From an uncultured bacterium (lineage in GTDB: Bacteria; Verrucomicrobiota; Verrucomicrobiia; Verrucomicrobiales; DEV007): a stretch of DNA of 64,000 nucleotides. Location: assembly GCA_963977015.1 (NCBI GenBank), contig CAXBMO010000005.1, positions 32,001 through 96,000 of the forward strand, given 5' to 3'. Below, in pieces: positions 25,278 through 48,186 of the stretch; positions within the stretch are counted from its first letter, which is position 1; each line of letters starts with the position of its first letter. The notes below the pieces were generated by a model, which saw only the letters and a program-made list of their open reading frames with translations, did not search any database and was not told the origin of the DNA. The translations under genes and the position numbers were made by a program.

Positions 25278-26311
25278 TGAAGAATTTTTGGATTACCTTC
25301 ATCGTTAGCTCGTTTTTCTTCCTGAATTTGGCAAACGCTCAGAGCCCATTGATCCGCTACGGTTCCAAGGTTCCCGCCGAGGTCGAAACCATTTACGAAC
25401 GCGGACTTGGTTGGCTGGTTCAGAACCAGGGGGAAAGTGGAAGTTGGGAAGGTGATGGAGAACACGGCATTACCGGCATGTGCGTCATGGCGATGATGGC
25501 GAGTGGTCAGGATCCCAATTTTGGCCGCTACAGCACTCCAATTCGACGCGCCATACGCCACATGATCATGGGCCAGGATCCCAAAACCGGCTATCTTGGC
25601 GACAGCATGTATCATCATGGTTTTGCCATGCTGGGATTGTCCGAGGCCTACGGCGCGGTGGATGACACGCTCATTTGGGAAGGAAGTGAAGATCAAAATC
25701 GGAGACGAAGCATTGGTGAAGCACTGGAATTGGCGGTGAGCTGCGCTGCCATTTCTCAAAAGAACAATCGCTGGGGCGGCTGGCGGTATTCTCCCGAGTC
25801 CAGCGATGCAGATACCTCCGTGACCGGGGCGGTGTTGATGGGGTTGCTCGCGGCTCGCAACGCAGGGTTGGAAGTCCCGGATGAGGTGGTGGAAAAGGCG
25901 CTTGGCTACTTTAAACAAAGCACCGGCCCAACGGGGATGGTGGCCTACACCGGCGGCTTGGGCGGGATGGGCGAATCGATGAACCGCTCAGCCATCGGTG
26001 CCCTTGTCTATGCGGTCGGGAGGAAGAAGGAGTGGCCGGAATATGGCGCAACGCTGAAGCACATCACGGACCGGCTCGAACATCCGGAAAGCGGCTATCC
26101 CCATTATTTTCGTTACTACATGGCTCAGGCTCTGTTTCAGGGCAATTTCGAGGCTTGGGAAAGCTGGAATCGGGAAACCGCCCGTCTTCTCAGCCAAACG
26201 CAGCAGGAAGACGGCAGTTTTCCTGGCAGCCACGGAGATGCGTATGGAACTGCGATGTCCATGCTCGCACTCGCCCTCAACTACCGCCTCTTACCCATTT
26301 ACGAGCGATGA
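25274..26311 (+). CDS. Secreted prenyltransferase/squalene-cyclase-repeat (alpha/alpha barrel) protein
   Basis: QW-like repeats (WL..NQGESGSW, GGWRY, QQEDGSF), MYHHGFA, DTSVT, C-terminal LPIYER. Confidence 0.85.
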   Translation: MMKNFWITFIVSSFFFLNLANAQSPLIRYGSKVPAEVETIYERGLGWLVQNQGESGSWEGDGEHGITGMCVMAMMASGQDPNFGRYSTPIRRAIRHMIMGQDPKTGYLGDSMYHHGFAMLGLSEAYGAVDDTLIWEGSEDQNRRRSIGEALELAVSCAAISQKNNRWGGWRYSPESSDADTSVTGAVLMGLLAARNAGLEVPDEVVEKALGYFKQSTGPTGMVAYTGGLGGMGESMNRSAIGALVYAVGRKKEWPEYGATLKHITDRLEHPESGYPHYFRYYMAQALFQGNFEAWESWNRETARLLSQTQQEDGSFPGSHGDAYGTAMSMLALALNYRLLPIYER

Positions 26312-29300
26312 AAAACACCTTTCAAATTCATCGCACGATGCGGGAGTACGCATCCGTTGTCGCAATGGTCATCGCAGCACTGCTGCTGTGCCCGGAATCT
26401 GGGGCACAAACCACGAACCTGCCCGGGGAATTGGTTTGGACGAACGGCGACAAGCTGGTTGGGAAACTGGTGGGAGCAAGAAACGACCAGATTCATTGGA
26501 GTTCCGAGATTTTCGCGGAGCCGATCGTCCTCGACACCGCCCACCTGGAATCGATCGAGCTTTTTTCCGAAAAAGAAACCGCATCCGGTGGCCCTTTCCG
26601 AGCCAGTTTAGTCAATGGTGATGTGATCCACGGTTCACTGATTCATTTGAACGATACCTGGATCACGATGGAAAGCTCCCGCCACGGCACCATCAAGATC
26701 AAGCGCGACAGCGTGATTCATCTCCGACGACTGAACCATCCTTCCCTGATCTTTTTGGGCCCCAATGGCCGCGAAGGCTGGAGCGTGCAAAGCCGGCGCA
26801 CGAGTGTCAACTTCTGGGGAATGCGTCCCGGAGGAGGTCTCTACTCGCCCCGTTGGCGATCTGAGTTATTTCGCCGCTTGATCTACCCGGAGAAGGTTGA
26901 GGTAGAGGTCATGCTTCGTTCCAGCGAACGCCCCGAATTTACGATTGCTCTCGACCAACGACTCGATACCACCGTGCGGCTCGAAACGTGGGATGATGAG
27001 TTGGTCGTAACCCGCGGAACCGACTTTTCGCCGGTCATGACGTTAGGCAAAAACGACAGGTCGGTTCATCTTCGCTTGTTTTGGGATCGTCAGGCTGGTG
27101 AAATGTTTATCCATTCGGGGGACGGCACCCAATTGGCGCGTCTGCCGGCCAAAACGGATTCCAACTCGACAAAGAACGATGCGTTCTATCTTCTCAACAA
27201 AGGAATCGACCTGGAATTGGGCAAATTGCGCATTTCCAAATGGAATGGCCGTCCGCCGGTGAAGGTTCGAAATGACGAAGGTCACGTTCGTTTGCTCGAT
27301 GGCGAATTTGCCTACGGGGCCGTGACGGGCCTGACAGCCTCCGATGGAAGTATCACGCTTTCCGGCGGCAAACGCGTGCCGCTTGACCGCATCGACACCA
27401 TCCGTTTCAGCAATCCGGCCACGGCCACGCCCAAGCAGCAGCCCGTTGAGATGACGTTCGCGGATGGCTCCCTGCTTTCCGGGACGCTCGCCGGAATCTC
27501 GAACGGAAAAGTCCTTCTTCAAACTCCCTACACGGATCAGCCCATTCCATCCGGTCTGCAGGAAGCTCGACAATTGCGGTTCCGGAAGGATTCCGCTCCT
27601 CCGATCGATACCTCGGACCAGCTCCACACTTCCGAAAAAGTATTGCACGGCTCCATTGCGGGCGGTGCTGGCCCAAACCCGATTCGCTGGCGGCCACTGG
27701 GTGCCGTTGAGCCGGTTTCGTTGGCGCCGGGAATTCCCGCCAGGATGGTCCGAACCCGCACTCAATCCGTCGGGAACCTGGATGGTGACCGCGTTTTTCT
27801 CAGCAGTGGTGAAATTGTCTCCTGCCGGGTCGCGAGCATGAATGGAACGGAGATGAAGCTTTCCAGCAGTTTCTCAGAAATCGAGACCCTTCCGGGAAGC
27901 CAGATTCGTGCGGTTGAATTTCGCGAAGGGCGTCTGCAACTTTCAGGATTCCGGGATCGCGCTTGGACCAAAATGCCGATCGATGGCGGTAAGAGCCTGC
28001 GCGAAGCCGAGAGGCTCGTTCTCGATGGAGGCGGCATTGCTCACCCATCCATTTTGCGGGCTGACGAGATTGCGTTTGACCTGAAATGGCTCAAAACAGA
28101 GCAAGGCGGCGTCACCTTGAGCCTTTTTGCTCAGGAACTCCTCGATACCCCGGCACCGCTCGACATCAGCTTCAGTTGTTGGAGCAATCGCCTTTGGGTT
28201 GCCGGAATGGAACCAACTTTGGGCAACAATTTGGGCGGCGACGATATCAATATCGAGAACGGATATGCCCAAGTCATGATTCGGGCGACGACCGACCGGG
28301 TTTTTGTCTGGGTGAATGGCAAGCAGCTTGTGAATCTCCATTTGGACGCCAAAAAGCGACTCGGAAATGGCCTCCGAATTTGGAGCGGTGGACCGTGGTT
28401 CGAAGCCGGAGCGAAACTCAGTAGCGTCACGATTCAGAAATTTGAGGTTCGCAGCAGCACCGGACTCTTGGCGCCCCTGCGTGTTGATGACAGCGCCAAA
28501 GAACACGTTCTCGCAACCCCCAGATTTCGACGCGACAATCCCGACACTCACGTCTTGATCGCTCCGAACGGAGACCTTCTCCGGGGACGACTGGGCGACG
28601 CCAACAGCGAACAGATCGGCTTCACGTCTCGACTGAAAGAGTTTCAATTTCCGCGAGAGCGCGTCGCAGGTCTGGTTTCCCTGGAATCAAGCGATAGTAC
28701 CCTTCCCCAGTTGGAGAACGAAGCCCGCGTGGTTCTGAACGACGGAGCCGTGATTCGGCTCGTTCCAACGGAAATGAGCGCGACAATCCTCAAGGGTAAA
28801 TCTCCCAGCCTCGGCGACTGTGAGCTGCCTGTCGCCGCCATCCGCCAAATTCACCTTGCCGAAGTCGAGCCGATTCCGGATCAATTGATCTATGCCGACT
28901 GGACTCGGCAGGAACCGCGGGAACCCGTCATCCCAAAGGCCGGTGCTCCGGGAACACAATCTCAGATGATCGGCAAAGCGGCTCCTCCTTTTCGATTGCC
29001 CTTACTCTCGGGGGAAACCTTCGACCTCGAAGAGCAGCGTGGGCAGCTTGTCGTCTTGGAGTTTTGGGCCACTTGGTGCGGCCCATGTCAGGCAGCTTTT
29101 CCAGAGTATCTGGAGGCATTGGGACATTTCAATCCTGATGAGGTCCGGTTCATCACCGTCAACCAGGCGGAACCCGCCGCGATCGTGAAACCGTACCTGA
29201 AACGCCACAACTGGAATTTCGAGGTCGCTCTCGACTCTCGCGAATCAGTCGCTCGGAAATACGGAGTTCAGGGCATTCCCCACACCGTGTTGATTGATCG

Positions 29301-29409
29301 AGAAGGCAAGGTGGCCTGGGTTCAAACCGGTTTCGTTCCCGGAGTTGGCGAGGAACTCAAGAACGTCATCACAGAGCTTCTCAATCCCAGCGAGCCTGGC
29401 TCGAATTGA
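26308..29409 (+). CDS. Large secreted protein with C-terminal TlpA-type thioredoxin domain
   Basis: ATGA overlap with the upstream stop. C-terminal APPF.L...FWATWCGPC...GIPHTVLID. Confidence 0.85.
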   Translation: MKNTFQIHRTMREYASVVAMVIAALLLCPESGAQTTNLPGELVWTNGDKLVGKLVGARNDQIHWSSEIFAEPIVLDTAHLESIELFSEKETASGGPFRASLVNGDVIHGSLIHLNDTWITMESSRHGTIKIKRDSVIHLRRLNHPSLIFLGPNGREGWSVQSRRTSVNFWGMRPGGGLYSPRWRSELFRRLIYPEKVEVEVMLRSSERPEFTIALDQRLDTTVRLETWDDELVVTRGTDFSPVMTLGKNDRSVHLRLFWDRQAGEMFIHSGDGTQLARLPAKTDSNSTKNDAFYLLNKGIDLELGKLRISKWNGRPPVKVRNDEGHVRLLDGEFAYGAVTGLTASDGSITLSGGKRVPLDRIDTIRFSNPATATPKQQPVEMTFADGSLLSGTLAGISNGKVLLQTPYTDQPIPSGLQEARQLRFRKDSAPPIDTSDQLHTSEKVLHGSIAGGAGPNPIRWRPLGAVEPVSLAPGIPARMVRTRTQSVGNLDGDRVFLSSGEIVSCRVASMNGTEMKLSSSFSEIETLPGSQIRAVEFREGRLQLSGFRDRAWTKMPIDGGKSLREAERLVLDGGGIAHPSILRADEIAFDLKWLKTEQGGVTLSLFAQELLDTPAPLDISFSCWSNRLWVAGMEPTLGNNLGGDDINIENGYAQVMIRATTDRVFVWVNGKQLVNLHLDAKKRLGNGLRIWSGGPWFEAGAKLSSVTIQKFEVRSSTGLLAPLRVDDSAKEHVLATPRFRRDNPDTHVLIAPNGDLLRGRLGDANSEQIGFTSRLKEFQFPRERVAGLVSLESSDSTLPQLENEARVVLNDGAVIRLVPTEMSATILKGKSPSLGDCELPVAAIRQIHLAEVEPIPDQLIYADWTRQEPREPVIPKAGAPGTQSQMIGKAAPPFRLPLLSGETFDLEEQRGQLVVLEFWATWCGPCQAAFPEYLEALGHFNPDEVRFITVNQAEPAAIVKPYLKRHNWNFEVALDSRESVARKYGVQGIPHTVLIDREGKVAWVQTGFVPGVGEELKNVITELLNPSEPGSN

Positions 29410-31154: not shown

Positions 31155-33860
31155 ATGGCTACCAAATACGTATACTCCTTCTCTCCCTCTGGCTCCGATG
31201 GGGATGGCAAACAGAAACCTCTCCTTGGCGGAAAAGGAGCAAACCTCGCTGAAATGTGCAACATCGGCCTGCCAGTTCCTGCAGGCTTCACGTTGAGCAC
31301 TGAAGTTTGCGTTGATTACTACAAAAACGACAAGAACTACCCCGCCGAGCTCGAACAGCAGGTCAACGACGCAGTAGCCAAGCTCGAAGCAGATCAAGGC
31401 AAAAAGTTTGGCGATCCTTCCAACCCGCTTCTCGTTTCCGTCCGCTCCGGCGCCCGCGAATCGATGCCCGGAATGATGGATACCATTTTGAACCTCGGCA
31501 TCAATGATGAAGTGGTTGCAGGTCTCGCGAAAAAGACCGGTAATGAGCGTTTCGCATGGGACAGCTACCGTCGTTTCCTTCAAATGTACGGCGACGTCGT
31601 CATGGGCGTCCAGGCCGGCGAAGGCGAAGATCACGAACCCTTTGAAGAAGTCATTCACGCCCTCAAAACCGAATTGGGTAAGGTGGAGGACAATGATCTT
31701 ACGACGGACGATCTCAAAGAACTCGTCACGCGCTTCAAGCACCTCATCAAATCGCACACCGGAGAAGATTTCCCGGAAGATCCAATGACCCAACTTTGGG
31801 GCGCTGCCAGCGCAGTGTTCAACTCCTGGGAAAACGATCGCGCGGTTGTTTATCGCCGGAAGTATGACATCCCCGCAGCTTGGGGAACGGCCGTCAACGT
31901 TCAGGCCATGGTCTTTGGCAACAGTGGTGACACGTCCGGAACTGGAGTCGCCTTCACTCGTGACCCCGCCAACGGTGAAAAGGTCTTCTACGGTGAATAC
32001 CTCATGAACGCACAGGGCGAAGATGTCGTCGCTGGTGTTCGCACCCCCAAGCAATTGGCCGAGATGGTGGAGGATATGCCCGAAAGCTACAAGCAACTCG
32101 GAGAAGTATTCGAGAAGCTGGAAGCCCACTTCAAAGATGTGCAGGACGTCGAGTTCACGGTTGAAGACGGTAAACTCTACATGCTGCAAACCCGGAACGG
32201 CAAGCGCACTGGCCTCGCCGCTCTCAATATCGCCTGCGATATGGTCGAAGAAGGCTTGGTTGACGAAGATACCGCTTTCGGCCGCATCCCGGCGGACGAT
32301 CTGGAGCAACTGCTCGCCCCCATCTTCAACGCTGATGCGGAAAAGACCGCCCAGACGATCGGAACCGGCCTTCCCGCTGGCCCCGGCGCAGCCACGGGCA
32401 AGATCTACTTCAACGCAACTGACGCGGTCGCTGCCGCCGAAAAGGGCGACAACGTGATCCTCGTCCGCATCGAAACTTCTCCGGAAGATTTGCGCGGAAT
32501 GATCGCAGCAAAGGGGATTCTCACCTCTCGCGGAGGTTCCTCCTCACACGCAGCACTTGTGGCCCGTCAAATGGGCAAAGTCTGCATCTGCGGAGCAACG
32601 GGCATCCAAATCGATTACACGTCCAAGACCGTCACCGCAAATGGTGTCACCTTGAAGGAAGGCGAAGACATCTCCATCAACGGCACCAACGGAAACGTTT
32701 ATGCCGGCGCGATTGAAACCGCTCCATCCGAGATCATCCAGGTGCTCGTCGAGAAGACGATGGCTCCCGGCGACTCGGCACTTTACGCGAAGTGGGAAAA
32801 ACTGATGGCATGGTGCGACCGGACCCGCAAACTCGGCGTCCGCACCAACTCAGACGATCCTGAACAAGTGAAACGCGCAATCGGGTTCGGTGCGGAAGGC
32901 ATCGGCCTGACCCGGACCGAGCACATGTTCTTCGAAGGCGATCGCATTGACGCCGTGCGTGAAATGATTCTCGCAGAAACGCTCGAAGCACGGAAAACCG
33001 CACTCGCGAAGCTTCTCCCTTACCAGCGCGAAGACTTCACTGGCATTTTCGAAGCACTCGACGGCCGTCCCGGAACCATTCGTCTCCTCGACCCACCGTT
33101 GCACGAGTTCCTGCCTCACACCGATGAGCAGAAAAAGGATCTCAGCAGCAAGATCGGCGTCAGCGTTGAGAAGATCAACGAGCGCTGCGACGCCCTCCAC
33201 GAGTTCAACCCAATGCTCGGCCACCGCGGTTGCCGACTTGGCATCGTCTACCCGGAAATCACTGAAATGCAGGCCCGCGCCATCTTTGAAGCGGCTGCCG
33301 ACGTGAAAGCGAAGGGCATCGACGTCTTGCCGGAAGTGATGGTGCCGCTCGTCGGTTACAAGCGCGAATTCGACCTCCAAGCCCAAGTCATCAACCGCGT
33401 CGCGGCAGAAGTGAAGGCTGAAAAAGGCGTCGAGTTCGACTACCTCGTCGGCACGATGATCGAGTTGCCACGCGCAGCCCTCACCGCGAACGAGATCGCC
33501 GAGAGCGCTGACTTCTTCAGCTTCGGAACCAACGACCTGACCCAGACCTGCCTCGGCCTCAGCCGTGACGACAGTGCCGGATTCATGGGCGCCTACCAGG
33601 AAGCCGACGTGTTCGCCAAGAACCCGTTTGCCGCCATTGATCAGGACGGCGTTGGCCAATTGGTTCAACTCGGAGTCGAGCGCGGACGCAGCACCAAGCC
33701 TGATCTCAAGCTCGGCATCTGCGGTGAGCACGGTGGTGAACCAAGCTCGGTGAAGTTCTGCCACCGCGCAGGACTCAACTACGTGAGCTGCTCTCCCTTC
33801 CGCATTCCGATCGCACGGATGGCGGCCGCTCAGGCGGTTTTGGAGGAGAAGAACTCCTAA
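31155..33860 (+). CDS. ppdK: Pyruvate, phosphate dikinase
   Basis: [32 protein letters not shown] phospho-His loop, [22 protein letters not shown]. Confidence 0.98.
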
Positions 33861-33909
33861 GCGCTTCATCGTAACGGAATCCGCAAGGAATTCCGACTCG
33901 CTGAATTTG

Positions 33910-33945
33910 AAGCCCTGTCGACTTCGGTCGGCAGGGCTTTTTTTT
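33910..33945 (+). terminator. Intrinsic terminator of ppdK
   Basis: AAGCCCTGTCGAC-TTCG-GTCGGCAGGGCTT stem with a UUCG loop running into a T8 tract. Preceded by a GCAA-loop hairpin at 33875-33895. Confidence 0.92.
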
Positions 33946-34167
33946 GAGGGCGGATTGCCCCCCCCGACGGGACACACGATTCGCTCGAAGATTGTGCCGT
34001 TTTACGCGTTCAACACTGCTCCGTTCCTTTCACGAACCGTTTCCACCATCTCCAGCCAACCGGGTTTGCTTCGTCAAGCAACGTGGTCGTTGCGATCCGG
34101 CAAGCTGCCGGCTTCCCATTCCCGCATCATCCCACCCGAGTCTTGGGTTGGCGCATTCGACTGGTTT

Positions 34168-34401
34168 TCAAGACTGCGGACCGCAGCCACCAAAGGGATT
34201 TCAGCCTCCGCCCGGCGGCGGGCTGGGTGCGGCCCCGGAAGGAGAGATGAAGCCGTAGCCGCCGGAGATGACCCGGCGCACCGGGACACCGGTGTCGGGA
34301 TGCCGTTTGAGCGGTGGATCGGTCATGCTCTGACGAACTTCGAACTGAATCGGAGCCTCGTTGCAGCAGTCCGGAATGGTCTCGTAAACGTAGGTCGGCA
34401 T
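34168..34401 (-). CDS. FmdB-family small protein; probable selenoprotein (in-frame UGA at 34201-34203)
   Basis: MPTYVYE...FEVRQSMTDPPL..HP.TG.PVRRVISGG is the FmdB-like pattern. The ORF to the first TGA is 34201..34401. Readthrough gives ...GGG-U-NPFGGCGPQS to the next TGA at 34168-34170. Confidence 0.75.
34172..34188 (-). promoter_or_regulatory. Candidate bacterial SECIS element
   Basis: Hairpin GGCUGCG-GUC-CGCAGUC starts 12 nt after the UGA. It has a G/U apical loop and resembles the fdhF SECIS upper stem GGUUGCAGGUCUGCACC. No U-tract follows it. Confidence 0.6.
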
Positions 34402-34413
34402 GACTCAAACACC

Positions 34414-37400
34414 TTACTTCATGGGATGCTCCTTGAGCAAGTCCGCCGGTTTGTAGAATTGGCCGGGCTGCCGGTCGGAAGTGGCTTTGCGGACTTTTTT
34501 GACCGTTTCCGGCTTCACCACCGAAGCGTTGTTACCAAAGGCGTTGCGAACGTAGGTCAACACACCCGCAATTTCCTCGTCATTGAGAAAGCCTGCAAAT
34601 GGTGTCATGGGAGGCACTCCCTGGCTTGGGTCATACGTTTTGCCGTTAACCTCAATGGGGCCCCATAATCCATGGAGCACGAGTTTGATGAGACGCTCTT
34701 CGCTTCCACTCACCCACGGACTCTTCGTCAGTGGTGGATAAATATTCGGAACCGCCCCTACCCCATCGGCGCCATGGCAAGTCTCGCAGTGTGCATCGCG
34801 GCCATAGACTTCCTCGCCGATCTTCCAAAGCTTTTTCTCAGCATTGGTGAGATGGGAGGGAGCTTTGGGTTTGGGAGCTTCCTTCGTTTTCAGCTCAAGC
34901 TTTCCCTGGGTGAGAAGCTCGGCGTTCTTGTTGTCACCAATATCGAGTCCTTCAGCATCATCTTTCAGGGTCCAGTAGGCAGCCTCGATCGATGGCCCCA
35001 TCCATTTGTCGAACGGTAGGCGAACCGCCTCCATGAGAATCTTGGCCCCGTCCTGATTATCGAGCCAGCTGGCGGCAACGATCGCTTCGAGTCGAACGCG
35101 AGGATGTTCGTCGGTCGCTGCATCAAGGAAGAGTTCGGTGCTGTTGGGCACCTGCCCGTGGGTGAAGCGGAGTACATCGACGGCGGCTGCGCGGACTTGG
35201 TGGCGACTGTCATTGAGCGCCTGTCTGAGAATGTGGTGATCGACTTTGCCTTGCGCCCAAGTCGCCCACAAACCTTCGAGGAGGTGACGCCCGTAATCCG
35301 GATCACTCGGGCTGAGACCGGCTACCCATTTGCGAACTGCCGGAAGCACTTCCGCAGGGGCGTGTTCGCGAAGCTCGCGACGGGTGCGATATCGGGTCCG
35401 GTATTCGTGAGCTTTGAGGTTCTCCAACAGATTGGCGACCGGCTCACCATCGATTTTGGCCGGCTCGACCAAGGGACGGGATGGATAGGTGAGTCGGTAG
35501 ATACGGCCATACTGCGAATTGCGATTGGGGTCGCGCGCGGAATGCTGCATGTGCCCGATGAGGGCGTTGTGCCAATCGACGATGTAGAGAGAGCCATCGG
35601 GCGCGAATTCAAGGTCGGCAGGGCGATAGTTTCCGTCATCGCTGCGCACGAGATCCTGCCGGTGGCGTCCCTGAAAGCCGGATCCATCTTCCAACACCGT
35701 GTGTTGCTTGGTGCCGAGAAAGCCAATCGTGTTGTTGAGCAGGTAGTCGCCCTGAACAGCGTCAGGGAAATGGCGACTGGAAACAAATTCGCCGCCGGAG
35801 GTGGGCCGCACCTTGTGAGTTGTGAATTGCTCGGTCTTTCCAATTTCCATCCCATGCGGAGTCTTGGCGCTTAGGGCTGTCATCCACCAATTCGCTCCTC
35901 CGGAAGCATCGCCAAGGAAGTCCTGGCCAAATTCATCGAAGGAAACGGCCCAGGGATTGGAGTAGTCGGACTGGGAATGGCGGATCAACTTCCACGAACG
36001 CGGATCAAAGCGCCAAACGCCGCCATCAGTCATGCGCTGAGGGCCATACGGAGTCTCAACCTGACTGTGGAGAAATCGCCCTTCGCAAAGATAAAAGGCG
36101 CCGGAAGCGTCCGCGCAGTAGGCTGAAATGGCGTGGTGAGTATCGTGAGAATCGAATCCGTCCACGATACGGGTGCGCTTGTCGGCCACGTCGTCGCCGT
36201 CGGTGTCTTCGAGCAACATCAGGTAAGGTTCCTCGCTAACGTAAACGCCTTCGGGCGCAAGTTCGAAGCCGATGGGAACGTGAAGACCTTCTGCGAAAAT
36301 CGTCCGTTTATCCGCACGGTTGTCGCCGTCGGTATCTTCAAAAATCAGGATCTTGTCATTGGGTCGCTCACCTCCGGGGAGATAATGCGGATAGCTCGGA
36401 ACGGTGGAAACCCAGAGGCGGCCTTTCGCATCGAACGACATTTGGACCGGATTCTGCAGGAGCGGAAACTCTTTCTCGGAAGCAAACAGCTCCAATTTGT
36501 AGCCTTCCGGGAGCTGGAAGCGCGACATGGCGGCGGGAGGATCGAGATATTCGATCTTCCGCGTGTAGTTCGTGATGACCTTGCTCAGCTTACGTGTTTT
36601 AGAGTCATCCACGGCCTTGTCCTTGCCTTGGGCGATGGCCCAGATTTTCTCATCACGGAGGAACCCCATCTGGCGGATTTTCTCGATCTCTTCCGGATAG
36701 TTCACGTTGCCGTATGGCGCCCAGCGACGTCCCCAAACGTGAACACCGTTCAGCATCCGGTAATCATTGTGCCAGAGCCAATTCCGATCAAGAATCGCCT
36801 CGCGAAGCTTGGCCAATTGCTCGGGTTTCGTCTTCAGTCGAATGGGGCCAAAGAGCTTTTCCATCAGCACCGGAGCAAGCAATTCGTAACCGTCGGAGTT
36901 GAGATGACAGCCGTTGAGTGTGAGTTGGGAACCATCGACGGAGAACCAGTCTTTCGTCACCGAAAAGAGATCGATTCCGCCCACGTTCCTGGCTTTGGCA
37001 ACTTCGAGAACCGCTTGGGAATAGGCTTCCAAGCGCTTGTTCTCCGCTTGGCCAGAAGGCAAATCATAGGCATCGCGCCGGTCTTCAAAGGCAATCGGCG
37101 TTACCAAAACCAGCTTTGGCGCAGACTTGCCACCGTTGTAGCTGAGGCTCAGCGTGTGATCGACGAAGGCGCTCAATTCCGCTTTGAAATTGGCCAGCCC
37201 ATCCATCCCATCGAATGACTCATTGTAGCCGAAGAATGCGACAATCGTGTCCGCCTTCAGATCCGCCAGCCACTCATCGGGATAGGGGTAGTGACCATTC
37301 CCGGGTTTCAATCCGGGAATGTGCGTTTGCTTGTCGGGGTGAAACTTCTCGGCACCGGGAAACGCCCAGGGAGTATCGCGTGCCGGATGAGCGCGAAATC

Positions 37401-38661
37401 CCGGTGTGTCGGCCGGGTGACACATGTTCCGGAAAAACAGATTCTTGTCGGCAAAATGCGCAAAGAGCCGGGTTTCAAAGTGCCCCTCATGAAGCATGCG
37501 CTCGCCCAGGCTGTTTCCAATGAAGACAATTCGTTCACCCTGTTGGGGCTTGAGGGGCAGGTTCACCGGCCCCACGGATTTCGGCGCCTTCTTTGGCTGT
37601 TCGTACTTGGGCCGTTCGGCCATTCCCTCTTGAATCGGCTTCTTCGTTCCCTTCGGCTCCTTCATGGTCGTTGCGAGACCGGTTGCGGTGCTCTTGCCCA
37701 ACGCGAAGCTTTGCGCGGTAAGCTTGAGCCCGTCGTAATACTCCTTGGGGTTGCGGGAATAGAACGTCGGTTGATAACGATCGACGGGCTTAACATTGGC
37801 TGCGGGCGGGACCTCCAGCCCCGTCAGATGGAAGACGCCATTTACGACGATTCGACGAAGGCTTTTCGCTTTGAAGTCGACCGATGACCCAATCGTGCTC
37901 ATGAGGGCCATACCCGTCTTGCCGCTTGGCGCGGTGTATTCCTTCAACCAAACAGCCGCCTGGAGAGGATCGTTCTTTGCCTGAACGTAATTGGAATTGG
38001 GGTCGAGCGACTCGATCACCGCACCTCGCACCAAAATCGTGGCATTCGCCTCATCCAGATTTCCCGTTCCATAAACATCACTCGGCGCAAAGAACATATC
38101 ATCGACTCCGCGCAAAACGGGATGCCGCGAATGCTTCTGAACAATGATACCGCGGGTTCCCTCCACCTTGTGTTTTCCGTGATGGCCCGCCCACTTCTCC
38201 CCGAGGAACGTCAGCCCAAAATTGTTCCAATCGATCCCGCCCAGATCGGACTTGGTCTTGAACGCATGCGTTGCGGTTCGCAGTCCGATCACGGGTTTCC
38301 CAGCATTGATGAAATCCAGAATATGTTGCAACTGCGGTTCGGGCAGATCGCGAAACCGGGTCGCCAGAATCATCACATCGGCGGTTTTGAGAGCCGCCAA
38401 GCCAGGAATGTTGGTGTTGAGCTCCGGATTGATGTATCCGGTCTTCGGGTCGATGGCAAAACAGACCGTTGCCTTGAATCCATGATACTGGGAAAGAATC
38501 TTGGCCAACATCGGTCCCGTTTCCTCTGACCGGTATTCCTCATCGCCGGTGACGATGACAACGTGTTTGCCCTTGCCGGGCCCTTCTTCGCCCTCGAGGA
38601 CGAGCGTTTGAGCCGAAGCCAGAAACGGCAAGGCGAGAATCGAAAGAAGCAGTTGACGCAT
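34414..38661 (-). CDS. Multi-domain PVC-type heme protein: ThuA-like + SGNH + dehydrogenase-like propeller + HEAT + cytochrome c
   Basis: GDEEYRSE and GLRTATHAF (ThuA-like), IGNSLGER and NGCH (SGNH), NPVQMSFD.KGRLW and APDGSLYIVDWHN (propeller), CETCH...YPPL...PMTPF (cytochrome c). Confidence 0.9.
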   Translation of the reverse strand: MRQLLLSILALPFLASAQTLVLEGEEGPGKGKHVVIVTGDEEYRSEETGPMLAKILSQYHGFKATVCFAIDPKTGYINPELNTNIPGLAALKTADVMILATRFRDLPEPQLQHILDFINAGKPVIGLRTATHAFKTKSDLGGIDWNNFGLTFLGEKWAGHHGKHKVEGTRGIIVQKHSRHPVLRGVDDMFFAPSDVYGTGNLDEANATILVRGAVIESLDPNSNYVQAKNDPLQAAVWLKEYTAPSGKTGMALMSTIGSSVDFKAKSLRRIVVNGVFHLTGLEVPPAANVKPVDRYQPTFYSRNPKEYYDGLKLTAQSFALGKSTATGLATTMKEPKGTKKPIQEGMAERPKYEQPKKAPKSVGPVNLPLKPQQGERIVFIGNSLGERMLHEGHFETRLFAHFADKNLFFRNMCHPADTPGFRAHPARDTPWAFPGAEKFHPDKQTHIPGLKPGNGHYPYPDEWLADLKADTIVAFFGYNESFDGMDGLANFKAELSAFVDHTLSLSYNGGKSAPKLVLVTPIAFEDRRDAYDLPSGQAENKRLEAYSQAVLEVAKARNVGGIDLFSVTKDWFSVDGSQLTLNGCHLNSDGYELLAPVLMEKLFGPIRLKTKPEQLAKLREAILDRNWLWHNDYRMLNGVHVWGRRWAPYGNVNYPEEIEKIRQMGFLRDEKIWAIAQGKDKAVDDSKTRKLSKVITNYTRKIEYLDPPAAMSRFQLPEGYKLELFASEKEFPLLQNPVQMSFDAKGRLWVSTVPSYPHYLPGGERPNDKILIFEDTDGDNRADKRTIFAEGLHVPIGFELAPEGVYVSEEPYLMLLEDTDGDDVADKRTRIVDGFDSHDTHHAISAYCADASGAFYLCEGRFLHSQVETPYGPQRMTDGGVWRFDPRSWKLIRHSQSDYSNPWAVSFDEFGQDFLGDASGGANWWMTALSAKTPHGMEIGKTEQFTTHKVRPTSGGEFVSSRHFPDAVQGDYLLNNTIGFLGTKQHTVLEDGSGFQGRHRQDLVRSDDGNYRPADLEFAPDGSLYIVDWHNALIGHMQHSARDPNRNSQYGRIYRLTYPSRPLVEPAKIDGEPVANLLENLKAHEYRTRYRTRRELREHAPAEVLPAVRKWVAGLSPSDPDYGRHLLEGLWATWAQGKVDHHILRQALNDSRHQVRAAAVDVLRFTHGQVPNSTELFLDAATDEHPRVRLEAIVAASWLDNQDGAKILMEAVRLPFDKWMGPSIEAAYWTLKDDAEGLDIGDNKNAELLTQGKLELKTKEAPKPKAPSHLTNAEKKLWKIGEEVYGRDAHCETCHGADGVGAVPNIYPPLTKSPWVSGSEERLIKLVLHGLWGPIEVNGKTYDPSQGVPPMTPFAGFLNDEEIAGVLTYVRNAFGNNASVVKPETVKKVRKATSDRQPGQFYKPADLLKEHPMK

Positions 38662-41434: not shown

Positions 41435-42265
41435 TCAACGCCGAATCCGCCCTTCTCCTGCGTAGACGTTGAACCCTCGCTCGCGCAAAAAACCAATCAC
41501 GGTCTGACCGGAAGTTTCCGCGAATTCGACGGCGAGGCTGCTGGGAGCCGAGATGCCGGCGATGATGGGAATGCCTGCGGCAAGTGCCTTTTGCATGATC
41601 TCAAACGAGAGCCTGCCGCTCATCAAAACAATGGAGGATTTCAGGGGGAGTTGATTGGCGAGCAGAGCCTGACCAATCACTTTGTCGAGGGCATTGTGCC
41701 GGCCGACGTCCTCGCGGAGGATTTGGAGTTCACCTTCCACGTTAAAAATCGCGCTGGCATGGAGTCCGCCGGTCTGCTCAAAATTTTCCTGGGCTTGTCG
41801 CAGGATTGAGGGTAGCCGCAACAGCGTTTCCGGAGCAACGAGGAGGTCGCTGGTAACGGGGGCAAAATTGCAGAACACGGACTCGATCGTGGCTTTCCCA
41901 CAAATCCCACAACTCGAGGAACTGAAAACGTGACGCGTCAGGCTTTCCAATTTCGCAGCGTCAGGATTTCGCAGCAGCACATCGATCACGTTCCCCTCCC
42001 CCGCCTCGTCCACGGCGGGACAGGCGGAAATTTCGAAAAGGTCGTCGTTGGTGTGAATCATCCCTTCCGTCGCCAGAAATCCGGCGACGAGTTCGTTGTC
42101 ATGGCCTGGCGTACGCATGACGACGGCAACGCTTCTCCCTTCGACCCGAATTTCCAGGGGCTCTTCGACCGCCAACACATCAGGCTCGACCGCGTCAGTG
42201 ATTGCATCACTTTGCCGGCGTTGAAAGCGGCGTTTCTCGACTGAGAGGATTCCAGATGATTCCAT
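41435..42265 (-). CDS. fdhD: Formate dehydrogenase accessory sulfurtransferase
   Basis: EEPLEI, MRTPG, SSCGICG, TGGLH, REDVGRHNALDK, SGR.SFE..QKA, SAPSSLA. Confidence 0.95.
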   Translation of the reverse strand: MESSGILSVEKRRFQRRQSDAITDAVEPDVLAVEEPLEIRVEGRSVAVVMRTPGHDNELVAGFLATEGMIHTNDDLFEISACPAVDEAGEGNVIDVLLRNPDAAKLESLTRHVFSSSSCGICGKATIESVFCNFAPVTSDLLVAPETLLRLPSILRQAQENFEQTGGLHASAIFNVEGELQILREDVGRHNALDKVIGQALLANQLPLKSSIVLMSGRLSFEIMQKALAAGIPIIAGISAPSSLAVEFAETSGQTVIGFLRERGFNVYAGEGRIRR

Positions 42266-45604: not shown

Positions 45605-46510
45605 ATGAAAATCCCCTCATTTCTCACCGCAATCTGCCTCGCGGTTGCTGCGACTCTCTTTGTCTGGAAGCTCGATGCGCAAGACGAAGCGAAGAAGCTT
45701 TCCGTCCTGATCATCGACGGTCAGAACAATCACAAGTGGAAGGAAACGACACCAGTCCTGGTCGATGCTCTGGAAAGCTGCGGAAAGTTTTCCGTCGAGG
45801 TTTCCACCAGTCCGGGGAAGAATGCGGAAAGCAGCGCGTGGGATAGCTGGCGTCCGGAATTTGGCAAATACGACGCGGTCTTGACGAACTACAATGGTCA
45901 AATGTGGCCGACGGAAGTTCGCGGTTCCTTCATCGAATACGTGAAGGGCGGGGGCGCTCTCGTCGTGGTTCACGCGGCCAACAATTCATTTGGGATGTGG
46001 CCGGAATACAACGAGATGATCGGTCTGGGAGGCTGGGGCGGCCGAAACGAAAAGCACGGCCCTTATGTTTACGTGAAGGATGGCGAGGTCGTTCGCGATG
46101 AAACGCCAGGAAGAGGAGGAAACCACGGTCCTCAGCATGAATTTGTGATCGAAGTGGTGGATCCGGAACATCCGATTACCAAGGGAATGCCCGATCGTTG
46201 GCTTCACGCCAAGGACGAGCTTTACGACATGCTTCGCGGCCCCGCCAAGAACATGACGGTTTTGGCAACGGCAATGAGCCAGGTCACCAAGCGCCAGGAA
46301 CCCATGATGTTTACAATAGGATACGGCGAAGGCCGGGTTTTCCACACCCCCATGGGTCACGCGGATTACTCCATGCAGTGTGTCGGATTCTACAACACGA
46401 TTCAGCGCGGAACGGAGTGGGCCATTACCGGGGACGTGACCCTTCCACTCTCCGAAAATTTCCCCACAACGGAAGCTGTGTCCTCCGTTGGCGCGAAGGG
46501 CGCGGAGTAA
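45605..46510 (+). CDS. Secreted ThuA-like domain protein
   Basis: IIDGQNNH.W, HAANN, HPITKG, DELY, GRVFHT.MGH, RGTEWA. Confidence 0.88.
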   Translation: MKIPSFLTAICLAVAATLFVWKLDAQDEAKKLSVLIIDGQNNHKWKETTPVLVDALESCGKFSVEVSTSPGKNAESSAWDSWRPEFGKYDAVLTNYNGQMWPTEVRGSFIEYVKGGGALVVVHAANNSFGMWPEYNEMIGLGGWGGRNEKHGPYVYVKDGEVVRDETPGRGGNHGPQHEFVIEVVDPEHPITKGMPDRWLHAKDELYDMLRGPAKNMTVLATAMSQVTKRQEPMMFTIGYGEGRVFHTPMGHADYSMQCVGFYNTIQRGTEWAITGDVTLPLSENFPTTEAVSSVGAKGAE

Positions 46511-48097
46511 CTACTTTTTCGGAGTCGTCCAAAATTTGGGCGCAGTGGCAAACGCTTTCCATTTTTCGACAATCCCATCGCGGAGCAACGTTCGTTCCCG
46601 GGATTGCCAACCGCGAAACGCAATGGCCACCATGTGAGTCGGTGACGCTTCGTCTTGACCGGCGAGTTCCTCGAGATGCGCCGAGGCATTTGCAACGTCG
46701 TTGAGTTTGCCCAGGTGATCCTGGAGACGTCGTGCGGCTTTGCCGTAAGACTTTGCAGGTTTGCCGGGGAAGCAGGATTGAAAAAAGTCCACGGTGTAGC
46801 GCTGCTTCTTGATTGCCAGCCTGAGTTTGTGCCACTCTTCATCGGTCGCCAAATCCAAACTTCCCGCTTGTTCCATCACTCCCTGGTGGGCTTTTTCAAG
46901 GATGGTTGCGGCCATGGATCGAACAGGCCGATTCAACGCTTTGAGCTCTTTTTTCGACATCTCCCCTCGCCATCCCTGCTTCACGATCCACAAATTCAGC
47001 TCAATGATGGTCGCGCCATATTCGCGGGAAAGAATCGCGTTCCGCAATTTTCGATACGCATACCCCCGTTTGCGGTTGGCCACTTTCTGGAGATCGGAAA
47101 AGAGCTTCTCTTCCGGAAACTCGCTCAGCATCGGGCGAAGCCGTTCCTCAACGAAAACATCCCAGTCACGCGCCACGCCCAGTGGAACACCAATGACGTC
47201 CAATCGTTCTTTAAACGGAGCCGTAATCCGTTTGGGAATAGCGATCGAGAAAACGCTGAAGAGCGATTTGAGCCGTCTCAATCCAATGCGCATCTGATGG
47301 ACGGCATCGATATTGCGACCTTCCAGGATGGCGGCTTCATTCCCGCGAATCAGCTCGAGACAGTTGGTTAGAATGGCGAGGAACGCCTCTTCAACCGGGA
47401 TCTTGGCCCGGAATTTCAACGGTGTGATTTTCTGCGGTTCTGGCTCACGATGATTGAGTAGCCGATACCCCACATCCGCTTTTCGCGGACTGCCCAGCCG
47501 AACTGGAACCTGCTTCGCAAGCTGACTCGCTACCTCGTAAAGTGTCTCCGGACGTCCACGCTTGAGTTCCAGTTCGATCTGACAAAGTGCAGTCACTTTT
47601 CCTCCGGCACTGACCTCTCCTTCATCGACAACCATCTCCACCAGGTCTCCCTGAATCTCGAGATCGTGGAGGGTTCGTGAAATCTTTGTCTCAAACACCG
47701 GCTGCAGCTTTTTCTGGATCTTCGATTTGTGGACCGGCAGTTTGCCATGGCCGTTTTGCGCGGGAAGGAGGTCCAAATTCAATTCGGCATCGTCGACCTC
47801 GGCGTCATACTCCATTCGCTCATACACGCCCAACGCATCGCCCGGCTGTTCGGCGACCTTCATCGTCTGGATCCAACGATCGCCCTCCCTGCGGATTCGC
47901 AGTTCCACGTCCTCTTCGTTCAAGGCGCAATCCGGCGTATCAAAATAGCGCGATGCCAATTCGCAATGCTCGGGCTCATACCGGAGATGCTCAGCAACAT
48001 AAGACAATCCCAGAATCTTGGCGATATCCTCGCTGCGGCAGGTCAATTTCAATTCCGTTTCCTTGCTTCCTTCTGCCTGATTTTTCTTTTGTGTCAC
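46511..48097 (-). CDS. CYTH + CHAD domain protein (inorganic triphosphatase-like)
   Basis: ETELK, YFDTP, LRIR, IELELK, then CHAD motifs HQMRIGLRRL, RDWDV, HKLR...KKQRY, LQDHLG..ND. Confidence 0.9.
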   Translation of the reverse strand: MTQKKNQAEGSKETELKLTCRSEDIAKILGLSYVAEHLRYEPEHCELASRYFDTPDCALNEEDVELRIRREGDRWIQTMKVAEQPGDALGVYERMEYDAEVDDAELNLDLLPAQNGHGKLPVHKSKIQKKLQPVFETKISRTLHDLEIQGDLVEMVVDEGEVSAGGKVTALCQIELELKRGRPETLYEVASQLAKQVPVRLGSPRKADVGYRLLNHREPEPQKITPLKFRAKIPVEEAFLAILTNCLELIRGNEAAILEGRNIDAVHQMRIGLRRLKSLFSVFSIAIPKRITAPFKERLDVIGVPLGVARDWDVFVEERLRPMLSEFPEEKLFSDLQKVANRKRGYAYRKLRNAILSREYGATIIELNLWIVKQGWRGEMSKKELKALNRPVRSMAATILEKAHQGVMEQAGSLDLATDEEWHKLRLAIKKQRYTVDFFQSCFPGKPAKSYGKAARRLQDHLGKLNDVANASAHLEELAGQDEASPTHMVAIAFRGWQSRERTLLRDGIVEKWKAFATAPKFWTTPKK

Positions 48098-48186
48098 AAT
48101 CCTTGCTTAAACTAAGTTTCCCAGATTATACATTTCAATCCTTGGAGAAAGGATTGCTTTGTGACAAAACCCCACCCGCGCTTTCC

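Follow-up and report, generated by a model that had tools for sequence, protein, structure and literature searches.

Does the small open reading frame (ORF) at 34201..34401 on the minus strand of this DNA end at the stop codon that gene calls give it? It lies in a window, by which we mean the whole 64,000-nucleotide stretch analysed (positions 32,001 to 96,000 of contig CAXBMO010000005.1, from an uncultured bacterium of the Verrucomicrobiales), and encodes an FmdB-like protein that starts with an ATG at 34401, runs for 66 amino acids and ends in PSPPPGGG before a TGA at 34203..34201. A sequence-only reading had pointed out that the frame continues beyond this TGA as U-NPFGGCGPQS up to a second TGA at 34170..34168, also on the minus strand, and had proposed that selenocysteine (Sec, U) is inserted at the first TGA. 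Translation of 34168..34401(-) confirmed this layout, and comparative evidence together with a complete Sec machinery supported the proposal: we put at roughly 85% the probability that 34171..34401(-) encodes a 77-residue selenoprotein by standard bacterial recoding. The parts of the gene are the following.

34171..34401, minus strand: entire reading frame proposed for the 77-residue selenoprotein (Met1-Ser77, Sec67), from the read-through translation
34261..34401, minus strand: FmdB-like N-terminal beta domain, residues 1-47, without zinc-binding cysteines (family models, alignment, AlphaFold2)
34204..34260, minus strand: linker rich in Gly, Pro and Ser, residues 48-66, predicted to be disordered (low model confidence; variable length and sequence among homologues)
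34201..34203, minus strand: in-frame TGA, residue 67, proposed Sec (kept in 14 orthologues; aligned with an invariant Cys column)
34171..34200, minus strand: tail after the Sec, NPFGGCGPQS, containing the conserved Cys73 (in-frame Cys-bearing tails in 14/14 Sec forms)
34172..34188, minus strand: hairpin resembling a selenocysteine insertion sequence (SECIS), 7-bp stem, loop GUC (folding and the published bacterial SECIS consensus)
34168..34170, minus strand: true stop, the second TGA (orthologues stop equivalently with TAG, TAA or TGA; conservation ends there)

In the mechanism that we propose, the ribosome would meet UGA at codon 67, and the stem-loop 12 nt further on (7 bp, loop GUC) would recruit SelB with Sec-tRNA(Sec), leading to insertion of Sec; the binding of SelB is a prediction. 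Ten further codons (NPFGGCGPQS) would then be translated before the real stop at 34168-34170, which lies directly behind the hairpin. When selenium is absent, a tail-less 66-residue product would be expected.

The comparison that carries this reading used the read-through protein as query against 134 genomes of the same taxonomic family, which gave 58 match rows in 46 genomes; one internal TGA was present in 15/58 rows. We translated 35 loci, 32 of them from the source family and three being Cys forms of a sister family. Left out before counting were one genome in which the TGA is the terminal stop of another tail type, ...SMNTRKGGRR (G108), one whose tail has neither TGA nor Cys (G022), and copies with SILSMN-type or His-rich tails. 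We counted 14 Sec forms, i.e. genes with the in-frame TGA, in 7 genera (G000, G003, G024, G104, G018, G008, G107, G016, G141, G123, G124, G122, G125 and G060) and 19 Cys forms such as GGGGGG-C-GSGCGCH and GGS-CC-SGGSCCS. All 14 Sec forms (14/14) follow one pattern, [G/T/C]-U, 3-5 residues, C(G)C, 0-3 residues and a stop, as in GGG-U-MPSGCGCSS, PG-U-ARPGGCGCT, PT-U-APGGGCC and GGC-U-NPGGCGCS. When 32 sequences were aligned (the 14 Sec forms and 18 Cys forms, the Cys form G049 being unplaced, with its locus cut), the Sec column held Cys in 18/18 Cys forms and TGA in 10 Sec forms; in the four Sec forms with a C-U pair this column is occupied by Cys, and the TGA is aligned with the second Cys of a CC pair. 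None of the homologues ends at GGG with TAA or TAG: they have either the TGA followed by a Cys tail (14 genomes) or Cys at that place.

The codons behind the TGA change as those of a protein do. Between the TGA and the true stop, eight close pairs of Sec forms had 40 identical, 15 synonymous and 9 non-synonymous codons of 64 compared, the pairs overlapping and the counts not being independent. Nucleotide identity in these pairs was 0.76-0.92 over the tail versus 0.12-0.75 over an equal length past the true stop, and the real stop stands at the equivalent place in the orthologues. Judged from these codons, the tail after the TGA is under protein-level constraint. Furthermore, since frame, Cys codons and stop are kept although the Sec forms outside the window's own genus share 49-63% identity with the window's protein over the N-terminal domain, a dead remnant is not expected.

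The second line of evidence is the hairpin, GGCUGCG-GUC-CGCAGUC, which begins 12 nt past the first TGA, has a perfect 7-bp stem and is followed by UUGAAAAC without a U-tract. We found it at 34188..34172 just as the sequence-only reading had drawn it, and a terminator scan of 33800..34500 gave no terminator at this place. Counted from the U of UGA, the loop has G at +23 and U at +24, and the predicted folding energy is -8.6 kcal/mol. The published bacterial SECIS consensus consists of a loop of 3-9 nt, an upper stem of 4-16 bp, a G at loop position 1 or 2 with G or U behind it, a distance of 16-37 nt between UGA and loop, and a minimum free energy of at most -7.5 kcal/mol (PMC13188914). The window's hairpin agrees with all of this, having a loop of 3 nt with G first and then U, 7 bp, 19 nt from UGA to loop, and the energy just given.

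Hairpins in relatives were scored by post hoc rules: a stem of 6 bp or more, 3 or more of them G-C, a loop of 3-5 nt with GU from loop position 1 or 2, and this G at +23 to +27, with positions counted from the U of UGA. Every one of the 14 Sec forms has such a stem-loop past the TGA (14/14), while none was found in the Cys forms when counting from the aligned Cys codon (0/19) or in members of the family with a terminal TGA (0/93; 0/50 genome loci and 0/43 metagenome loci). In the source genome, 18/7037 TGA-ended frames of at least 150 codons (0.26%) have one, and one of these 18 is plainly a Sec-type peroxiredoxin, FTVG-U-TKEC. The stems of the Sec forms use at least four registers on the Gly/Cys codons, with the 3' arm often past the stop; the loop GU is invariant in an alignment of the hairpins only, from which, with the loops variable, no single consensus structure could be drawn. 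Pair types were counted by hand for each stem level, a count that is circular by construction. A MAFFT alignment of the region after the TGA has the hairpins out of register. The true stop lies inside the hairpin in 11/14 Sec forms and straddles its end in G016; in the window it comes one nucleotide past the stem. A second Sec at 34168-34170, which the sequence-only reading had thought possible, was rejected, because the equivalent place is TAG or TAA in 10/14 orthologues, nothing is conserved beyond it, and terminal TGAs of family members are followed by such hairpins in 0/93 cases.

Since Sec insertion depends on dedicated factors, the source genome, which is 95% complete, was searched for them. 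It contains SelA (403 bits), SelB (293 bits), SelD (376 bits) and tRNA-Sec (61.8 bits with Infernal), each above its curated cut-off. SelD has an in-frame TGA of its own, at SSCAG-U-ASK, and the tRNA has the anticodon loop CUUCAAA, with a UCA anticodon; ARAGORN missed the tRNA-Sec of this genome, though Infernal found one. SelA occurs in 14/14 Sec-form genomes and in 86/134 genomes of the taxonomic family, a co-occurrence for which no p-value is given as relatives are not independent. The Cys forms occupy the SelA-less genera g17, g18, g19 and g21, plus some SelA-positive genomes of genus g2. Comparison of sequences shows the in-frame TGA, a tail that is translated, the hairpin and the machinery for Sec. 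In the same genome, the peroxiredoxin-like frame with FTVG-U-TKEC, on contig G000:C2 (minus strand, TGA at ~6232), reads AWFPKAFTVG-TGA-TKECQSLREGG and has a hairpin with loop CGUGA past the TGA; its sequence suggests a Sec-type peroxiredoxin that annotation has divided in two.

An assembly error does not account for the TGA. In the public runs X1, X2 and X3, contigs cover 34201-34203 and list no difference there (X1 is possibly the source sample; X2 and X3 belong to a second study), and a metagenome scaffold, L154, that is 99% identical has the same TGA, tail and hairpin. The expectation that gene callers would truncate such a gene was borne out as well: public protein collections hold solely the 66-residue form of the window's product (P0002), gene calls ending it at residue 66.

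What precedes the tail is a domain of FmdB type that has lost its zinc site. The window's protein scores below the curated thresholds of both family models, with 29.6 bits against a cut-off of 34.4 for PF09723 (Zn_ribbon_8) and 24.9 bits against 31.3 for TIGR02605, and its residues 1-45/52 align end to end with the two models. Among the 32 aligned members, matches at E<=0.01 were obtained for 22/32 with TIGR02605 and for 27/32 with PF09723. Next to the canonical FmdB of the same genome (59 bits), C8 is replaced by T8, the second zinc cysteine is lost in a 5-residue insert, the third has become the invariant His34 and the fourth is deleted. The two CxxC zinc knuckles of TIGR02605 (CxxC_CxxC_SSSS) are therefore not present, in line with the earlier remark that the usual zinc-ribbon cysteines are absent; the DCC at residues 11-13 is limited to the window's own genus, g1, in the 32-sequence alignment. 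With this alignment as input, AlphaFold2 predicted three strands in residues 1-47 with a predicted local distance difference test score (pLDDT) of ~90, and disorder in residues 48-77 (pLDDT <50). Foldseek gave no match in the PDB at E<=0.001, and the best Z in a VIA fold search was 2.8, the weak rows including RbpA, small ribosomal proteins, aRF1 and the MCM N-terminal domain. Altogether, the predicted architecture is a folded beta domain of FmdB type minus the zinc cysteines, then a disordered linker of Gly and Pro, and at the C-terminus a cluster of the form [Sec/Cys]-x(3-5)-Cys-(x)-Cys.

Three further features of the window lie around the small gene.

34414..38661, minus strand: upstream gene for a 1415-residue protein with ThuA-like, GDSL-like, DUF7133/PVC heme-binding, HEAT and cytochrome c parts
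33909..33940, plus strand: terminator-like hairpin behind ppdK, ~230 nt downstream of the small gene's stop and the sole such site in 33800..34500
41438..42265, minus strand: fdhD

The distance from the stop of the 1415-residue gene to the start of the small gene is 12 nt, and fdhD lies nearby, both as had been noted before. The large protein is of the PVC-type heme-binding family (TIGR02604, 205.6 bits), its ThuA and GDSL-type lipase matches being below cut-off. The DUF7133/PVC heme-binding family is multicopy in the source genome (18 tblastn pieces), and the window itself holds a second large DUF7133 protein of this type at 47677-51126 (+), ~10 kb from the first, as well as a separate ThuA-family gene at 45605-46507 (+). 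Elsewhere in the window, a 1125-residue frame at 26032-29406 (+) has a start that overlaps the preceding ORF, and its sole annotation is a C-terminal AhpC/TSA-redoxin-thioredoxin domain at residues 980-1104.

The wider family is large. The knuckle-less, Cys-tailed subfamily has 869 database proteins at E<=1e-5, and a profile search gave 712 representative clusters at E<=0.001 and 235 at 1e-10. The titles of the records in which they occur name Verrucomicrobiota, Planctomycetota or Gemmatimonadaceae, and some belong to metagenome-assembled genomes labelled proteobacterial; in public records the homologues go by the name 'FmdB family zinc ribbon protein'. A tail with at least two Cys was present in 72 of the 80 best genome loci, and 2 of these 80 carry the Sec form. 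The 80 best metagenome loci comprise 71 with a Cys form, 8 with some other tail and the twin of the window. Ends without a tail Cys were seen in 5 of the 120 best database proteins (P0002, P0010, P0024, P0103 and P0121). Of these, P0002 is encoded in the window itself, and P0103 has the same sequence as the truncated product of the Sec form in G024. Sec forms were seen solely in the window's own taxonomic family, and in a 401-genome sample of the phylum 0/47 other matching genomes had a TGA inside the match.

Across several phyla, this family recurs beside P-loop proteins of metal(loid) handling. CobW/COG0523 is encoded within 3 kb in 14/80 genome loci, ArsA within 3 kb in 4/80 and an ArsC-type low-molecular-weight phosphatase in 3/80. 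The Cys forms of genus g2 lie directly downstream of CobW in 5/5 loci examined (L065, L066, L067, L070 and L071), and those of G020, G041 and G053 lie downstream of ArsA. Three Cys-tailed members (L032, L103 and L149) sit between ArsA and the ArsC-type phosphatase. The source genome has a second knuckle-less FmdB-like gene, at G000:C1:561772-561999 (L044:1501-1728), with no Cys/Sec tail and with the His-rich tail ...DDYSHGHGHDHEH, which includes HGHGHDHEH; a similar His-rich copy is found in G002, and L219 and L227 combine Cys with long His/Gly runs in the tail. These CobW and ArsA neighbours and the His-rich tails of relatives suggest that a small carrier domain bears a tail for metal(loid) binding, and we hold it to be an evenly balanced question whether the tail indeed binds a metal or metalloid through its selenolate and thiolates. 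The sequence-only reading had left the choice between a metal-binding and a redox tail; the tail's role stays conjectural on either count, with the neighbours and the relatives' tails leaning towards metal(loid) binding.

Some results weigh against this functional reading. Beside the Sec forms themselves, no metal-related gene is conserved, the exception being a convergent CobW in G060; no conserved neighbour common to the Sec forms was found, and the source genome gave no match to CobW or ArsA with the queries used. A complex predicted for a CobW neighbour and the adjacent Cys form (G096) scored 0.01 against a mark of 0.32, which counts neither way. A reading of the Gly/Cys tail as that of a ribosomally synthesized and post-translationally modified peptide precursor was rejected, as no modifying enzyme occurred among 61 neighbour proteins scanned.

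The strongest competitor to metal(loid) binding accepts the Sec and makes the tail a redox arm, in which a selenenylsulfide between Sec67 and Cys73 (or a vicinal Cys-Sec pair in the C-U forms) would shuttle electrons. The C-terminal Gly-Cys-Sec-Gly of mammalian thioredoxin reductase is a model for such an arm. Adjacent Cys-Sec pairs do occur in four Sec forms, in G000 and G003 a protein containing cytochrome c is encoded 12 nt upstream of the gene, and most catalogued selenoproteins are redox proteins (PMC9312934, PMC13188914). In the window's genus the partner could be this adjacent heme/cytochrome c protein. The heme protein is, however, upstream in G000 and G003 (and L074) only, so that the neighbourhood that the sequence-only reading had noted holds within the window's own genus and does not extend beyond it; a functional link to the 1415-residue protein as a general feature was rejected on these grounds. 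Moreover, the recurrent neighbours are the metal(loid) chaperone-type nucleoside triphosphatases CobW and ArsA and not oxidoreductases, and the His-rich tails of relatives suit metal binding, not redox chemistry. A redox arm thus seems possible, although we would lean well away from it.

A more ambitious proposal joins several of these strands. Here the protein would be a selenium-gated metal(loid) adaptor: a zinc-free FmdB fold with the selenolate as first ligand, exchanging its cargo with P-loop chaperones of the COG0523 or ArsA type and switching between a tailless and a tailed form, since the SECIS overlaps the stop codon and the ligand cluster would be made only with selenium. The third element would be autoregulation of selB in one genus. 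In G016 and G141, selB is on the same strand, with its ATG 43 nt past the stop of the small gene. The SECIS hairpin in this genus lies ~50 nt before the selB start (L026:1447-1540 in G016; L061 in G141). This placement could be due to chance, or the hairpin could double as a SelB-binding control site, by analogy with the SECIS-like element upstream of E. coli selAB. As a whole, this combined proposal is doubtful.

We now return to recoding itself, against which several observations count. The rules behind the 14/14 hairpin count were fixed once the 14 had been seen. In a maximum-likelihood tree, a single side takes in all 14 Sec forms and also one Cys form, which has a long branch; the Sec forms may have a single origin and thus not be 14 independent events, and what the evidence documents is long retention, not repeated invention, of the Sec form. 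The 5' arm of the hairpin is made of Gly/Cys codons, and the minimal hairpins of 4/14 Sec forms have -6.4 to -7.0 kcal/mol, weaker than the -7.5 of the consensus. An Rfam search at E<=10 over 33800..34500 gave 13 weak matches, all short of the gathering score, with no SECIS family among them. The 76-nt context is no better folded than its shuffles (z 0.67; 147/200 shuffles do as well). The fold alone therefore does not set the hairpin beyond chance, but comparison does, because 14/14 Sec forms stand against 18/7037 frames of the genome and 0/19 Cys forms. Finally, the Cys forms of G021, G134 and G034 have hairpins of 7-8 bp at the same spacing, with loops lacking GU, and a 3'-end hairpin may be older than the use of Sec.

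Could the TGA then be an ordinary stop, with a 66-residue product and a downstream frame that is the decaying remnant of a Cys-type ancestor after a TGC/TGT-to-TGA mutation? Public gene calls end there (P0002), one base change makes TGA from a Cys codon, the Sec forms possibly go back to one event, and the local fold alone is not significant. Yet decay over 7 genera would have destroyed the frame, the Cys codons and the place of the stop, whereas 14/14 keep the frame; the changes in the tail are mostly synonymous (15 vs 9) and conservation falls past the true stop; the GU-loop hairpin is specific to the TGA forms (14/14 vs 0/19 and 0/93); and SelA is encoded in all 14 genomes. We consider an ordinary stop very unlikely.

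It is also conceivable that the hairpin is a mere mRNA 3'-end element of the gene family, a stabiliser or a terminator without U-tract, and that any read-through is independent of it. The Cys-form stem-loops of G021, G134 and G034, equally far from the aligned Cys codon, fit this idea, as does the position of the true stop inside or across the end of the hairpin in most Sec forms. But their loops lack the GU that 14/14 Sec forms have, the loop G of the Sec forms is held at +23 to +27 from UGA despite differing stem registers, the window's hairpin has no U-tract and is not picked up as a terminator, and a conserved translated tail would be left unexplained, all of which makes this account a slim prospect. 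In the three Cys forms, which come from SelA-less genomes (L027 and L064 in G021 and G134; L035 in G034), the UGA stop lies inside the loop (CUGAU, AUUGA); these hairpins could be relics of a former SECIS or a general 3'-end element. As to the TGA being read as another amino acid (e.g. UGA to Trp or Gly under a changed code) or by unprogrammed read-through, UGA-to-Trp reassignment is reported in some Verrucomicrobiota (PMC13462651), but TGA is the commonest stop of the source genome (7040/12520 long frames), so an altered code is not the answer, and with the codon aligned to Cys rather than Trp or Gly and a full Sec system present this reading is practically negligible.

Recoding to Sec being the preferred reading, how does this protein compare with known systems? 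Two Global Ocean Sampling reads had already led to the prediction of selenoproteins in the FmdB family (Zhang and Gladyshev 2008, PMC2398784). Their Sec occupies the first zinc knuckle, residues 8-11 being UxxU in one and CxxU in the other, and reviews list them as 'U/CxxU' (PMC9312934) and 'UxxU, 2 Sec' (PMC13188914). The window's protein resembles them in being small, in its MP(I/T)Y.Y start, in its match to the FmdB models, in a TGA paired with the Cys of homologues and in having been cut by gene callers. It differs in that both knuckles are missing and that the Sec is residue 67 of 77, in the tail. In the available part of the 2026 review, no tail-type FmdB entry was found in the table (PMC13188914), and we found no description of a tail-Sec FmdB protein in the literature within reach, which left out bioRxiv supplements and subscription journals. 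The 'FmdB' of PMC4807772 and PMC11227280 is formylmethanofuran dehydrogenase subunit B and is unrelated.

Like the FmdB zinc ribbon of TIGR02605 and PF09723, the protein begins with MPTY.YE, has the FE..Q core and a C-terminal tail of low complexity that varies, and aligns with the models over its N-terminal 45-52 residues; unlike it, it stays below both cut-offs, has its zinc cysteines replaced or deleted and carries cysteines in the tail instead. Scanned at E<=10 against NCBIfam release 20, which includes the curated models for selenoproteins, the read-through protein matched TIGR02605 alone, with no UXX-star, KCU-star or SaoC match, and among the 32 aligned members, too, TIGR02605 was the sole model matched at E<=0.01.

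These last three are families with a C-terminal or near-C-terminal Sec (UXX-star, KCU-star and the 'Cys-Cys-COOH' of SaoC), and metal-ligand roles are proposed for SaoC and UXX-star (PMC13188914). They are like the protein studied here in having the Sec in a short, flexible C-terminal stretch near Cys, with the recoding signal past the stop. Here, by contrast, the Sec is followed by 7 to 12 residues that include the conserved C(G)C, and it is an FmdB-like domain that carries the tail. Another C-terminal Sec is that of thioredoxin reductase, GCUG. The recoding signal departs from the bacterial SECIS consensus in that the hairpins overlap or abut the real stop, so that part of the element is 3' untranslated, and in that four of the 14 are slightly weaker than -7.5 kcal/mol. 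The gene is in this respect a compact natural case of a SECIS spanning a stop codon.

The comparison also indicates what is gained. Every public copy that we saw is cut at the TGA and has lost the entire Cys cluster, a selenoprotein type thus being missed by annotation. It belongs to a large, unstudied group (712 clusters) in which the zinc site is lost and Cys, His or Sec is found in a C-terminal tail, often beside COG0523 or ArsA, and the poorly understood FmdB family gains with it a testable job, the handling of a metal or metalloid. Within the FmdB superfamily, the Sec would now be found at a second position, unrelated to that of the zinc-knuckle selenoproteins. The bacterial recoding mechanism is known; what is new is the position of the Sec in the tail and the zinc-less carrier domain that bears it.

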